This document shows, in pieces, positions 21,058-24,300 of a DNA stretch of 64,000 bases (the first letter of the stretch is position 1; every line of letters begins with the position of its first letter). Source of the DNA: Clostridium sp. CAG:780 (GTDB taxonomy: Bacteria > Bacillota > Clostridia > TANB77 > CAG-508); the NCBI GenBank assembly GCA_000434195.1, contig HF994471.1, positions 26,135 through 90,134 on the forward strand, written 5' to 3'. The notes below the pieces were generated by a model, which saw only the letters and a program-made list of their open reading frames with translations, was not told where the DNA came from and ran no database searches. The position numbers were made by a program, and so were the translations under genes.

Positions 21058-21225
21058 TTATTTATTTTGTTCAATATTACTAATTTCATTTGCTTGTTGC
21101 ATGTATTCTATAGAACTTTCTACCTCTTGTTTCAGAGAATATTTTTTTACTATTTTGTTTACAATGTTAAATAAGCAAGCGATTATTAATATTGCCATTA
21201 ATAATTTTTTCCAAATCTTAGCCAT
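21058..21225 (-). CDS. Small membrane-associated hypothetical protein (55 aa)
   Basis: ATG at 21225 follows an AGGAGAAAAAA ribosome-binding site. The product MAKIWKKLLMAILIIACLFNIVNKIVKKYSLKQEVESSIEYMQQANEISNIEQNK has an N-terminal hydrophobic helix and an acidic C-terminus. The gene lies directly downstream of the histidine kinase. Confidence 0.4.
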   Translation of the reverse strand: MAKIWKKLLMAILIIACLFNIVNKIVKKYSLKQEVESSIEYMQQANEISNIEQNK

Positions 21226-21316
21226 TTTTTTCTCCTAATAATTTTTACTATATTCTATTATAGTTAATTTTCCGCTTTTTGTCAACTAAAAATTGTTCTT
21301 TTTACTGTTTTTGGTG

Positions 21317-22780
21317 TTATTTTTTTATGTTTTCTATTGTTATTCTTCCAGTTTTGTCTTTTATTTTTTCTGATCTATATGTTAGTATTTTGTACTCTGC
21401 TTTACCGTCAAATCTAAATATTAAAGTTTTGGTAAAGTCATTTTCTTTCATTGGATGTTTCTCTTCTATTATCAAAGTACCCTTAGTTTCTTTTAATGTT
21501 TCAAATGTTGTGATAAATCCAATTCCTGTTCCACCTTCTTCTTTATGTGTTGTCGCTGGTTCCAATCCTAACTTTAATAATGTCTTTGGTTCGAATTCTA
21601 TTCCTGTGTCTGATATTCGTAGTTCATATATTTTGTCTTTTTCTTCTATCACAGTAACAATACTTCTAAATTTGTTTTGACTATGGTTTACTGCTATTAT
21701 TGCATCTCTTATGTGGTCACCTATCAAGGTTACTAATTTATCTTGTGGTATTATTTTATTTACAAGATGTCTGATGTCTCCATTTATTTGTAGCTTAAAG
21801 TCTATGTTATTTTTTATACACTCACTTTGCATATACTTAAACATATCATCTATTTCTTCAATTTCTGTTGTTGGCAATTTTTCTATGTGTTTGATTTCTT
21901 CTAGTTTATTAGAATATTCTTTTGATAAATTATTTATTTGATCTATGACCGATATTTCGTTAGCCATTTCTGTGTTCATGTTAGACAATAGATTGTCTAC
22001 TTTTAGTTGCATCGCTTTTTGTCTGTTATAAAATTCATGATTTAATTTGCTTATTTCAAATTTTTCTTTTGAAAGCTCTTCTATTTTATTGTCTTTGTCT
22101 TTTATTTCTTTTTCATATTCTTGTATATTTTTCTCTAGTTGTTTTTGTTTGTAGTATACTGTTAGTGTTTTTTGAATCATTATTATCATGATGACCACTA
22201 ATACTATGAATGGAAATAATATTTGTTTTACTATTGCCCCGTTTCCTGTTCCTTTTCCAAATAGACAATATGCAAACATTATTACTGCACTAATGTTTAT
22301 CATTATAATGTCTAAATACTCATTATTAGCTTTTTTGTTTAAAAATGTAAATCCGTTTTTAAATCTCCTGATTTTAAAGAACCCTATAAATAACGCTATT
22401 TCAAATATTAAAGCTATTGTTAAGTTTATAATATCTTCTTTAATTTTAATCGTATACATTGGAATCGCTTCCAATAGCATAGCAACAACCAATCCTATAT
22501 ACGCCATAGCATTAGCAATTAAATTCGCTATGATTAGAGATTTATTTTCATAAACAAATATTATTCTAATAAACACTATTTGTATAAAGAACAGTATTGC
22601 ATTTATCAGAATATGATCTATGTATTTGCTTAAAAAGACATAGATTGCAGTATTAACCAAACTTGCAGCAATCATCTTTATTGAAGTTTTGATATCAATC
22701 TTATTATTTGTTATTTTTGCAAATATAAAAAATATTAAGCTATTTATAGTAAAAGTTTTCATTATTAATTCTATATTCAT
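21317..22780 (-). CDS. Membrane sensor histidine kinase with an AgrC/HPK10-like architecture (6-7 TM segments plus GHKL ATPase)
   Basis: About 200 aa of polytopic N-terminus precede a coiled region with KLNHEFYNRQ and a C-terminal GHKL-type ATPase (GTGIGFITTFETLKE). Confidence 0.6.
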   Translation of the reverse strand: MNIELIMKTFTINSLIFFIFAKITNNKIDIKTSIKMIAASLVNTAIYVFLSKYIDHILINAILFFIQIVFIRIIFVYENKSLIIANLIANAMAYIGLVVAMLLEAIPMYTIKIKEDIINLTIALIFEIALFIGFFKIRRFKNGFTFLNKKANNEYLDIIMINISAVIMFAYCLFGKGTGNGAIVKQILFPFIVLVVIMIIMIQKTLTVYYKQKQLEKNIQEYEKEIKDKDNKIEELSKEKFEISKLNHEFYNRQKAMQLKVDNLLSNMNTEMANEISVIDQINNLSKEYSNKLEEIKHIEKLPTTEIEEIDDMFKYMQSECIKNNIDFKLQINGDIRHLVNKIIPQDKLVTLIGDHIRDAIIAVNHSQNKFRSIVTVIEEKDKIYELRISDTGIEFEPKTLLKLGLEPATTHKEEGGTGIGFITTFETLKETKGTLIIEEKHPMKENDFTKTLIFRFDGKAEYKILTYRSEKIKDKTGRITIENIKK

Positions 22781-22934
22781 AAGCTCTTCCCCTTCTAAGT
22801 AGCTCTATTATATACAAAAAAATGAATGTAATCAATAAATTACACTCATTTTTTATATATTACTATAATCCTAATATATATTCAAGCCACTCCCAAAAGT
22901 CTCTCATGTGCACTCACCACCAATCTTTTTTATT

Positions 22935-22977
22935 TTTTACAAATAAAAAATACCACTTATACGCCCTTGTATAAGTG
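22935..22977 (-). terminator. Rho-independent terminator after the response-regulator gene
   Basis: On the minus strand, CACTTATAC-aaggg-c-GTATAAGTG is followed by GTATTTTTTATTTG. Confidence 0.6.
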
Positions 22978-22993
22978 ATATTTGGTAGTGTAG

Positions 22994-23029
22994 TTTTGTT
23001 AAATTTTGTAGTTTTTTGTTAGATTTTGT
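22994..23029. promoter_or_regulatory. Phased array of four TTTTGT (ACAAAA on the gene strand) at exactly 10-bp spacing in the 3' UTR of the Spo0A-like gene
   Basis: TTTTGT occurs at 22994, 23004, 23014 and 23024. Helically phased A-tracts of this kind can give a bent DNA element or a repeated protein-binding site. Confidence 0.4.
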
Positions 23030-23035
23030 GATTTT

Positions 23036-23827
23036 TTATAATGTCTTTCTTATTTTTTCTACATAATAATATATAAATCCAGTAGGTGTTGGTATTCCTG
23101 TTTCATGATTTATCTTTGCAGTATAATGTTCTGATAAATCTTCTATTGACGATATTCTCCACGCATATATTATTGCATTTTGCATTGCTCTACTTATTGT
23201 ACTATCTGGTTTCTTATATTTTGCTGTTAAGTATTGAGTAATTGAGATTTTGCTATCTTTGCTTTCGCTTGTTAATAAGTATAATATCGCATCATGCAAA
23301 TATTTTCTTCCTTGTAGATGTGGACTTACTCCTATTATGTCTAACTCTTTATCAACTTTGTCAGAAATCATTTTTAATTCTTCTTCGTCATCATTCTCAT
23401 TGCTTACTGGTATTTCTCTTTCTTTATTTTTATATTCTCTCAATAACAATAATGTATTTATCACTTTCTCTATCGAGTAGTTTTCTTGCTTTTTGTAAAA
23501 TATAAAATCCACTTTGCTTTCATGTAGATAGTCATATACTGAATCTGAAAATACATTTGTTGTTACTACAATTTTAGGTTTTCTTTCTAATTTCAAATTT
23601 TGAAGTCCTTTCAAAAAGTCAAACCCGCTTCCTTGCCCTTCATTTAATTCTAAATCTAAAATTATTCCTTCTGGCGAATGTCTTTTATATAGTTTTAACC
23701 CTTCTTCTGCAGAATTTGTGATTGCTACGAATTCAATTTCATCACTCTTATTCGCAAATTCTACAAACTTATTACATTCGTTTTTGTCATCTTCTATTAA
23801 TAATAGTTTCATTGGTACTTTGCTCAT
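23036..23827 (-). CDS. Spo0A-like response regulator (receiver domain plus divergent Spo0A-type C-terminal DNA-binding domain)
   Basis: The receiver has LLLIEDD and ILDLEL. The C-terminus has IIGVSPHLQGRKYLHDAI, TISRAMQNAIIYAWRIS and IPTPTGFIYYYVEKI, which align to the Spo0A_C motifs GVPAHIKGYxYLREAI, RVERAIRHAIEVAW and KPTNSEFIAMVADKL. It has an AAAGGAGTG ribosome-binding site. The protein is too divergent to be a canonical Spo0A. Confidence 0.6.
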   Translation of the reverse strand: MSKVPMKLLLIEDDKNECNKFVEFANKSDEIEFVAITNSAEEGLKLYKRHSPEGIILDLELNEGQGSGFDFLKGLQNLKLERKPKIVVTTNVFSDSVYDYLHESKVDFIFYKKQENYSIEKVINTLLLLREYKNKEREIPVSNENDDEEELKMISDKVDKELDIIGVSPHLQGRKYLHDAILYLLTSESKDSKISITQYLTAKYKKPDSTISRAMQNAIIYAWRISSIEDLSEHYTAKINHETGIPTPTGFIYYYVEKIRKTL

Positions 23828-23917
23828 TTTTTCTGCACTCCTTTATTCTCATTTTTTCATATTTTATCACATTTTATCATGGATTTCCATATTTTTGTAG
23901 TCTGTTTTATCATTTCT

Positions 23918-23924
23918 TGTCGAA
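23918..23924. promoter_or_regulatory. Perfect Spo0A-box-like heptamer TGTCGAA in the divergent promoter region, flanked by two TTTTGTAG copies (23893, 23925)
   Basis: cttGTCGAAttttgtag lies between the regulator start (23827) and the XRE gene start (23983). Confidence 0.3.
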
Positions 23925-23982
23925 TTTTGTAGTTTATTATATGTATTAATAATTACTTTATAAAGAAAGGATTGATTTGTTT

Positions 23983-24300
23983 ATGTTAAAAAAGGAAATA
24001 GGTTTAAGAATTAAGTATATTCGTGAAACTATGGGGTATACTAAAGAAAAGCTTGCTAAGATGCTTGGAGTATCTGGTCAGTATTTAGGAATGGTTGAAC
24101 ATGGAAAAGGTTGTCTTTCAATAGACAAGATAGGAAAACTTTGTCAGATAACTAATCTCTCTGCTGACTATATCTTATTTGGTAAGGATTACTCTTTACC
24201 CGCTTCTGCACAAAAAGCTTTAGACGAATATAGTGAAGAACAAATTATATCAGGTTGTGAGACTCTTGAAAAATTGGCTCTTTTTATCAAAAATTTATAA
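23983..24300 (+). CDS. XRE-family helix-turn-helix transcriptional regulator
   Basis: The helix-turn-helix LAKMLGVSGQYLGMVEHGKGCLSIDKIGKLCQITNLSADYILFG is present. The ATG at 23983 has an AAAGGA ribosome-binding site. Confidence 0.75.
   Translation: MLKKEIGLRIKYIRETMGYTKEKLAKMLGVSGQYLGMVEHGKGCLSIDKIGKLCQITNLSADYILFGKDYSLPASAQKALDEYSEEQIISGCETLEKLALFIKNL

Follow-up and report, generated by a model that had tools for sequence, protein, structure and literature searches.

Is a Spo0A-like response regulator encoded beside a polytopic histidine kinase the only, fast-evolving Spo0A of its bacterium, or does it belong to a signaling circuit of its own? The question is raised by a locus of Clostridium sp. 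CAG:780, which we studied within a stretch of 64,000 nucleotides (contig HF994471.1, positions 26,135 to 90,134; hereafter the window, with its own numbering). The response regulator (23036-23827, minus strand, 263 amino acids [aa]) combines a receiver with a Spo0A_C DNA-binding domain, and the histidine kinase (21317-22780, minus strand, 487 aa) combines seven transmembrane (TM) helices with a DHp helix and a GHKL catalytic domain. Between the two lies a tiny open reading frame (ORF; 22863-22907, minus strand) of 14 codons, which encodes MRDFWEWLEYILGL and is proposed here to specify a signaling peptide, whereas an XRE gene (23977-24300, plus strand, 107 aa) diverges from the regulator. Our best reading, drawn entirely from sequence comparisons and given a probability of about 0.6, is that the XRE protein, the receiver plus Spo0A_C regulator, the leaderless Trp-rich peptide and the 7-TM kinase form a self-contained peptide-pheromone two-component cassette. 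Because the peptide and the sensor half of the kinase vary together as pheromones and their receptors do, the cassette is probably an undescribed cell-to-cell signaling system.

Conservation of the Cassette and Polymorphism of Peptide and Sensor

Scanning genomes and metagenomes with the regulator yielded 116 related loci from uncultured gut Clostridia (with labels such as Clostridium sp. CAG:245); the regulator sequence of locus L055 was left out on account of its poor alignment (frameshift or extraction error). Regulator, tiny ORF and kinase occur together in 102 of 117 related loci, most of which also have the divergent XRE gene, and a census of the tiny ORF with its AAAGGTGGTGA ribosome-binding site likewise gives 102 of 117, the 15 loci that lack it being mostly contigs that end shortly past the regulator gene. 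The order XRE(-)/regulator(+)/kinase(+) is found in about 40 of the 46 genome loci, down to 38-45% regulator identity. The pairing of the regulator with a polytopic histidine kinase, already pointed out in a preliminary reading of the DNA letters (hereafter the sequence-only reading), persists in about 90 loci, including some with regulators as little as 38% identical. The flanks of the cassette change, since mutS, miaB and rpmE are not conserved beside it. A scan of viral contigs with the regulator found no relatives, and thus the cassette is not evidently phage-borne.

Evidence for a signaling function comes from three metagenome contigs of the same species as the window (L047, L048 and L049), the regulators of which are 99.6-100% identical to that of the window. 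Their DNA matches the window at 100% throughout the regulator gene and once more from a point ~800 nt past its stop codon, whereas identity falls to 46-82% from +100 to +780 nt after the stop, with 46-73% over the tiny ORF plus the membrane sensor. This divergent interval corresponds exactly to the tiny ORF, hairpin 3 and the kinase promoter (see below) and the codons for the TM sensor of the kinase. The encoded peptides differ from that of the window (MSWEEIWKLIERILGA, MSWDDFWKWLEYILGA), and the kinases are 50-55% identical to the window's in their sensor halves versus 98-100% in their cytoplasmic halves. In window coordinates the hypervariable or 'pherotype' block extends over 22256-22936 and comprises the tiny ORF, hairpin 3 together with the kinase promoter, and ~175 codons from the start of the kinase gene; its left boundary lies just upstream of the ribosome-binding site of the tiny ORF, its right boundary at the junction of TM and cytoplasmic parts.

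The same co-variation is seen in 366 pairs of loci with at least 97% regulator identity, taking kinase residues 1-195 as the sensor. Pairs with identical peptides (n = 30) share 99% identity in both the sensor and the cytoplasmic part, whereas pairs with different peptides (n = 336) show 36% identity in the sensor versus 96% in the cytoplasmic part. A single species cluster related to CAG:245 contains more than 20 peptide variants. Sharply bounded and deeply divergent alleles of peptide and sensor within otherwise identical DNA are a hallmark of agr groups and comQXP pherotypes. Judged by these patterns, the peptide and the sensor domain appear to form a specificity unit with many alleles, or pherotypes, within a species, and the quorum-type circuit that had been suspected from the window is what both the same-species contigs and the locus pairs look like.

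The tiny ORF, which the sequence-only reading did not report, is annotated nowhere because it is too short for gene callers. It follows a strong Shine-Dalgarno sequence (22914-22921, minus strand; GGTGGTGA, for a family consensus of AAAGGTGGTGA). Across the related loci it encodes 74 distinct peptides of 12-19 aa, 52 of which have the modal length of 16 aa, with Trp accounting for 18.3% and Cys for 0.5% of all residues. The peptides are leaderless, beginning directly at Met1, and share the conserved amphipathic pattern M-x-W-[DE]-[DE]-phi-[W/phi]-x-W-phi-x-x-[W/phi]-phi. The most distant clade has the tiny ORF inverted, on the strand opposite to the kinase (e.g., MWQEIWKIFINTINGR), a situation which indicates that it is not a simple leader ORF of the kinase; the peptides of this clade end in G-R/K (e.g., MWQDLWEIIQNILGNK).

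The Kinase Family

The kinase has seven TM helices between residue 3 and about residue 205, a long DHp helix and a GHKL domain at residues 308-487. Alignment of the family reveals an invariant H248 within the NHEFYNRQ motif of the DHp helix, together with the N-box (D/N359), the G1 box (D391xG393) and the G2 box (G416G417xG419xG421) of the catalytic domain; the generic features of histidine kinases, namely a DHp helix with a conserved His and a GHKL domain with N, G1 and G2 boxes, are all present. The AlphaFold model (mean predicted local distance difference test [pLDDT] of 74) likewise runs from seven TM helices into a long DHp helix and then the GHKL/CA domain. Its homologs lack any precomputed Pfam domain and go by the name 'hypothetical'; an exhaustive search of 1.84 billion representatives retrieved 1040 relatives, 288 of them with E values of at most 1e-30 (50%-identity representatives). 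From its sequence and its predicted structure, the neighbor of the regulator is a real histidine kinase of a family without annotation.

The sequence-only reading had assigned this protein to the AgrC/HPK10 class. The window kinase alone matches HATPase_c weakly (20.7 bits, under the cut-off of 26.4); within the family, 20 of 21 members match HATPase_c whereas 3 of 21 match HATPase_c_5. Moreover, the family profile finds its best sequence match in the PDB with the KinB chain of the KinB-Sda complex, in the KinB catalytic domain (E = 5e-6). The model retrieves the folds of HK853, DesK, the CA domain of AgrC and KinB, AgrC being one among many equally good matches. By sequence the catalytic domain is nearer to classical kinases. 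The earlier description as a polytopic histidine kinase holds, and the AgrC/HPK10 class is at most a candidate assignment.

The match with KinB also bears on an alternative for the peptide, which might not be secreted at all but act as a small membrane-interface modulator of its own kinase, in an intracellular feedback of the kind exerted by MgrB on PhoQ, by SafA, or by Sda on KinA and KinB. In that case the hypervariability would stem from selection on the exposed sensor, phages or other surface-directed pressures being possible agents, and the peptide would co-evolve or hitch-hike. Such a role would suit the lack of a signal sequence, leader or export gene with the cassette, as well as the character of the peptide, a short amphipathic Trp-rich helix of the type that presumably sits at membrane interfaces; the best PDB match of the kinase profile, moreover, is precisely a KinB chain in complex with Sda. 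It accounts poorly for the many sharply bounded and deeply divergent alleles found in one species between flanks that are 100% identical, a pattern which in agr, comQXP and comCD represents social diversification of signals and receptors. Furthermore, the extracellular loops predicted by the model are very short and would leave phages little to select on, and the divergence spans all TM helices plus the peptide. We consider a membrane-interface modulator possible but doubtful, and retain the pheromone reading.

Phased Arrays and 0A Boxes

If the regulator has an output of its own, candidate sites for it lie on both sides of its gene. An array of four TTTTGT(N4) units (22994-23029, plus strand, read against the direction of transcription) lies after the regulator stop codon and before hairpin 1; its hexamers start at 22994, 23004, 23014 and 23024, that is with an exact spacing of 10 bp. 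This is the only such run among the 181 TTTTGT copies on that strand in 64 kb, and a run of at least four appears in 0 of 500 composition-matched shuffles. The corresponding heptamers (TGTTAAA, TGTAGTT, TGTTAGA and TGTGATT) keep the TGT of the 0A box TGTCGAA but neither its C4 nor its G5. A phased array occupies the same position after the regulator in all clades, and the TGTCGAA boxes of sister lineages share place and orientation with the array of the window: L005 and L006 have two TTCGACA with 10-bp spacing, while the large L019-L041 clade and L121 have a single copy whose position is fixed. A count over 6.0 kb of unique sequence ahead of the hairpin gave 18 perfect TTCGACA on the regulator-sense strand versus none in the other orientation, a 55-fold enrichment over the background of 0.055 per kb per strand. 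Apart from the box of the cassette, no perfect 0A box occurs in 12 kb of L017 or in 20 kb of L121. The uniqueness of the run, its conserved position and the single orientation of the boxes indicate a degenerate 0A-type array rather than noise.

All four copies reported by the sequence-only reading are therefore real, as part of a positionally conserved cis-element related to 0A boxes, and the possibility which that reading had left open, of AT-tract noise common to the genome, does not agree with the shuffles. Mere phased T-tract (bent) DNA, or a slipped tandem duplication, to which no specific protein binds, is a related explanation: Tandem Repeats Finder reads the array as a 20-bp unit repeated 2.2 times, the window has a G+C content of 29% with a T-rich plus strand and its 181 hexamers, and of the 0A box no more than the TGT core survives. 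Neither bending nor slippage, however, is expected to give the sole run of its kind in 64 kb and none in 500 shuffles, nor an array at the same position in every clade where perfect 0A boxes are enriched 55-fold and oriented 18 to 0. We regard it as unlikely.

On the other side of the regulator gene, in the space that separates it from the XRE gene, two copies of TTTTGTAG (at 23893 and 23925, plus strand) flank the perfect 0A box TGTCGAA (23918-23924), the whole spanning 23893-23932, exactly as had been noticed before. The motifs are kept in L001-L003, in which the box reads TACGACA on the regulator-sense strand. Overall, the intergenic regions between XRE and regulator genes contain 8 perfect 0A boxes in 6.2 kb, for a background of 0.096 per kb, with variable position and orientation. 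The predicted regulator promoter (TGGAAA-17-TG-n-TAAAAT; 23889..23861, minus strand) is overlapped by ~10-bp phased repeats (TGATAAAATG / TGATAAAATA / TGAAAAAATG / AGAAT; 23845-23889, minus strand). These repeats are of the TG type with a phase of 10-11 bp, and have counterparts of the form ATGAYA or ATGGTA ahead of the regulator gene in all clades.

The Regulator and Its Relation to Spo0A

In Pfam searches the regulator matches both Spo0A_C (51.9 bits, cut-off 25) and Response_reg (30.6 bits, cut-off 30.2). It reaches 89.1 bits with TIGR02875, the NCBIfam equivalog of Spo0A, against a cut-off of 200 bits, and the family members tested score between 65 and 97 bits, all under that cut-off. A protein search retrieved 1144 relatives; among the 120 matches listed, nearly all combine a receiver with Spo0A_C. 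The receiver residues E12, D13, D58, T90 and K112 are invariant in 46 sequences, and hence the regulator should be phosphorylatable. Its DNA-binding domain aligns over the full length with the solved C-domains of Spo0A (1fc3 and 1lq1, PDB sequence search), yet the recognition helix is STISRAMQNAIIYAW versus SRVERAIRHAIEVAW in Bacillus subtilis Spo0A, the latter being near-invariant among canonical Spo0A proteins. Following what we take to be the numbering of the Spo0A-DNA structure, two of the three base-contacting positions of this helix are changed in the window regulator, the equivalent of Arg214 being the sole survivor. Other clades of the family have NTITNGIQNAI or SSVERAMQNAI in this helix. 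In canonical Spo0A, which contacts G2, C4 and G5 of TGTCGAA, the contact residues are kept from Bacillus to C. difficile (PMC3485338). Together with a signature of its own (QNAI..AW and PTPxEFIYYYVEKI), these features place the regulator, as far as sequence can tell, in a distinct Spo0A paralog family, divergent from canonical Spo0A, which is how it had been read at first sight. Of note, the helix of the most distant clade, SSVERAMQNAI, is closer to the canonical one.

The cassette resembles canonical Spo0A, with its orphan kinases in Clostridia or its phosphorelay in Bacilli, in the combination of receiver and Spo0A_C, in tandem 0A-type boxes one helical turn apart and in a membrane kinase for input. 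It differs in that its low-scoring regulator (89 vs 200 bits) has an adjacent cognate kinase and a peptide gene, does not lie at recN-spoIVB and co-occurs with a canonical-type Spo0A_C gene in two relatives. The sequence-only reading had asked whether a canonical spo0A normally neighbors spoIVB-recN; the regulator gene of the window sits between the XRE gene and the kinase. The recN gene (463-2151, minus strand) is followed by an M50 peptidase gene (HEFAH) and tsaD instead of the spoIVB-spo0A pair customary in spore formers, as is seen on contigs of 3.6-4.8 kb that continue leftward from recN.

The two relatives are L017 and L121, in which a receiver-less gene of canonical Spo0A_C type lies 3-5 kb from the cassette on the same contig. 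Such genes (L017:765-1268, minus strand; L121:10001-10492, plus strand; L120:305-784, plus strand; 159-167 aa) are found, with a near-consensus promoter, inside the cell-division cluster mraZ-rsmH-ftsL-[Spo0A_C]-PBP. The L017 protein (167 aa) has the helix KVERAIRHAIESAW and reaches 154.7 bits over the C-terminal 141 model positions, whereas that of L121 (163 aa) is encoded between ftsL and the PBP gene of the mraZ-rsmH cluster, with a Coat_F gene nearby. The presence of a canonical-type Spo0A_C gene beside the cassette implies that the cassette regulator is a paralog in those lineages. We also noted, in the protein search, many Spo0A_C-only proteins of 150-210 aa from gut Clostridia, some of which are named 'sporulation transcription factor Spo0A' by NCBI.

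These results answer our initial question, at least in part. If the regulator were the organism's only Spo0A, fast-evolving and phosphorylated directly by its neighbor as occurs in Clostridia, one would understand that no other Spo0A homolog is found in the 64-kb window, that the recN-spoIVB-spo0A locus is not intact near recN, that the receiver chemistry is preserved and that 0A boxes are associated with the cassette. One would not expect the separate canonical-type gene 3-5 kb away in L017 and L121, nor a family with its own signature and synteny over 38-100% identity, the members of which score 65-97 bits against a cut-off of 200, nor an adjacent kinase for what is known as an orphan regulator (PMC6136694). 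We consider this explanation very unlikely. No sporulation genes were seen among the ~25 annotated proteins of the window.

The distinction is of practical importance. Spo0A_C has been taken to mark Spo0A uniquely (PMC6136694), an assumption that the present family of regulators would break, and the presence of spo0A is used as a marker of sporulation in metagenome-assembled genomes (PMC11536998), surveys of which would miscount both these paralogs and the receiver-less Spo0A_C proteins. The phased arrays would offer, in addition, a testable case of diversification in DNA recognition of the Spo0A type.

Hairpins and Promoters around the Tiny ORF

The spacer between regulator and kinase has the same order of elements in related loci: the phased box array next to the regulator stop, hairpin 1 (which contains GC and ends in a T-run), the AT-rich hairpin 2, the strong Shine-Dalgarno sequence, the tiny ORF, hairpin 3 with a T-run and with TTGATT in its 3' arm, 17 bp, TATAAT and the ribosome-binding site of the kinase. 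Hairpin 1 (22952-22979, minus strand), which is followed by a T-run and resembles an intrinsic terminator, coincides with the terminator that had been placed between the two genes (22948-22983, minus strand, in the terminator scan) and probably terminates the regulator transcripts. It shows compensatory changes in five of nine pairs among 14 loci. Hairpin 2 (22923-22951, minus strand) is an AT-rich inverted repeat formed by a T-run and an A-run preceding the ribosome-binding site, with compensatory changes in three of ten pairs (8 of 19 for hairpins 1 and 2 together). Since the 3' arm of hairpin 1 plus its T-run (GTGGTATTTT) fits an extended -10 element (TGnTAnnnT), transcripts of the peptide may start inside hairpin 1 and so escape termination. 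In every lineage this 3' arm (AGGTGGTA) and the ribosome-binding site of the tiny ORF (AGGTGGTGA) are near-identical (22914-22979 in the window), so that the 5' arm of hairpin 1 (TCACCT) could pair with either. An Rfam scan of 20500-24500 at permissive threshold gave nothing meaningful for the conserved hairpins.

After the tiny ORF, hairpin 3 and its T-run (22807-22850, minus strand; the hairpin itself at 22821-22850) carry in the 3' arm the -35 element of the predicted kinase promoter (TTGATT-17-TATAAT; 22835..22807, minus strand), an arrangement conserved in L001-L012. That the tiny ORF is a cis-acting upstream ORF for attenuation of the kinase, encoding a functionless peptide, is most improbable: its position between two terminator-like hairpins and its wealth of Trp codons recall the trp leader, but the 74 variants preserve the amino acid pattern despite divergent nucleotides, a conserved predicted promoter downstream of hairpin 3 belongs to the kinase itself, ORF and kinase are on opposite strands in the most distant clade, and the ORF belongs to an allelic block with the sensor domain.

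A Possible Mechanism and Its Weak Points

Under the pheromone reading, the tiny ORF would be translated from its own strong ribosome-binding site and the peptide would reach the outside of the cell or the membrane interface, where the membrane sensor of the kinase encoded just downstream would recognize it and switch kinase activity. On account of the pherotype pattern, the sensor is most likely reached from outside. The kinase would then autophosphorylate on H248 and pass the phosphoryl group to D58 of the regulator, a transfer suggested by their conserved adjacency and by the invariant pocket around D58. Once phosphorylated, the regulator may bind the 10-11-bp phased, TG-type (0A-like) boxes at 22994-23029 and 23845-23932, with consequent feedback on the expression of peptide, kinase and regulator and presumably on further targets; both the sign of this feedback and the regulon are matters that we infer. 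The XRE protein could serve as an accessory repressor or gate.

Several points weigh against this scheme. Its weakest point is that no gene for export or processing (AgrB, a C39-ABC transporter or ComQ) is conserved with the cassette, as a secreted signal would seem to demand. Part of the co-variation could be linkage within one divergent block, given that peptide and sensor are physically adjacent. Translation of the ORF, phosphotransfer from kinase to regulator and binding of the regulator to the boxes are all predictions, and another Spo0A_C protein could bind the boxes. Regulators with the same recognition helix are accompanied by different boxes, TGTTAAA-type in the window versus TGTCGAA in L005 and L006, and their specificity is thus not assignable. 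Finally, the DHp region of the kinase model is of low confidence, with pLDDT below 50 at residues 239-299.

Comparison with Known Signaling Systems

The closest parallel is with agr, both the staphylococcal AgrBDCA and agr-type systems, which share a peptide gene immediately upstream of a polytopic 6-7 TM kinase and its cognate regulator, a sharply bounded hypervariable block over the peptide and the sensor half that defines specificity groups within species, and autoregulation through phased direct repeats (presumed in our case). Unlike agr, neither the window cassette nor the related loci have an AgrB-type membrane peptidase or an AgrD precursor of ~46 aa with the Cys or Ser of a thiolactone or lactone ring, and with peptides of 12-19 aa that are leaderless and have no conserved Cys (0.5%) a thiolactone is not possible. 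The output domain of the regulator, moreover, is Spo0A_C and not LytTR, and the catalytic domain of the kinase lies nearer to classical kinases by sequence. The ComQXPA system of Bacillus also has a Trp-containing peptide, a multi-pass kinase and within-species polymorphism of the peptide and the N-terminal half of the kinase between conserved flanks, but our cassette lacks a ComQ prenyltransferase or other linked modification enzyme, a precursor of ~55 aa and a regulator of the NarL/ComA type.

Tiny, unannotated genes for leaderless hydrophobic or Trp-containing peptides with a strong ribosome-binding site, adjoining an XRE-type gene, are otherwise typical of the streptococcal ComRS (ComS having a WW motif) and Rgg/SHP systems. 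The receptor of these RRNPP systems is a cytoplasmic protein of ~280-300 aa with helix-turn-helix (HTH) and TPR domains and their peptide is re-imported, whereas the XRE protein of the cassette has 107 aa and an HTH only, the allelic partner of the peptide being the membrane kinase. The cassette differs also from ComCDE/Blp, because its peptides have no double-glycine leader and no ABC exporter with a C39 peptidase is conserved beside it. No account of the cassette, of the peptide family or of a receiver-less Spo0A turned up in full-text searches of the literature.

If our reading is true, the cassette would add a new combination of peptide, receptor and regulator to Gram-positive signaling, in abundant but uncultured Clostridia of the human gut, and the more than 20 peptide alleles of one species cluster would lend themselves directly to the study of kin discrimination among gut bacteria. 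With a signal gene invisible to standard annotation and a kinase family devoid of any Pfam domain, the system could be found only by reading intergenic DNA. As a tentative extension, for which the odds are well below even, the cassette might represent a new class of Gram-positive peptide signaling, with an unprocessed, leaderless and Trp-rich pheromone of 12-19 aa, a dedicated family of 7-TM kinases and a Spo0A-type output on 0A-like boxes. In lineages such as L017 and L121, with loss of the receiver from the canonical-type Spo0A, the cassette may even have taken over the input to the Spo0A regulon, coupling decisions on sporulation or stationary phase to strain-specific kin recognition.

Other Features of the Window

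Nearly every gene of the window is on the minus strand. Reading along this strand from 24300 to 21000, the XRE gene is followed by the regulator, a spacer of 255 nt, the kinase, a 55-aa ORF and then rpmE. The 55-aa ORF (21058-21225, minus strand), which encodes an N-terminal hydrophobic helix, had been considered as a membrane peptide partner of the kinase. The ORF is real, with a perfect promoter of its own (TTGACA-17-TATAAT; 21285..21257), but it is found in same-species contigs only and in no other related locus, and is not part of the system.

The XRE gene adjoins the regulator in 98 of 117 loci and its product matches Pfam HTH_3 (1.4e-12) with no domain other than the HTH; when checked for a SinR-like identity, its PDB sequence matches were restricted to generic XRE proteins (C.BclI and ImmR). 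The gene is absent from the most distant clade (L040, L042, L043, L045, L046 and L108-L112, labelled Lachnospiraceae), in which the regulator is 38-40% identical. In one clade only, a gene for a protein with Radical_SAM and Radical_SAM_C domains lies beside the XRE gene. Some loci have additional genes between regulator and kinase, which were considered as candidates for processing or export and rejected, as they encode transposases of the PD-(D/E)XK family (L022:7168-7800, L023:7259-8167 and L034:7256-8164, between the regulator and the peptide gene); the rest of the cassette is intact in these loci.

Elsewhere in the window, four minus-strand ORFs are without Pfam match, namely 13190-15688 (832 aa), 15693-16094 (133 aa), 30764-32575 (603 aa) and 28950-29807 (285 aa). 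The NCBIfam scan of the first three gave no match, the 285-aa ORF having been scanned with Pfam only. A tandem repeat of 81 bp, with about two copies and 93% matches (6306-6506), lies within a gene with a KilA-N domain (6257-7183).

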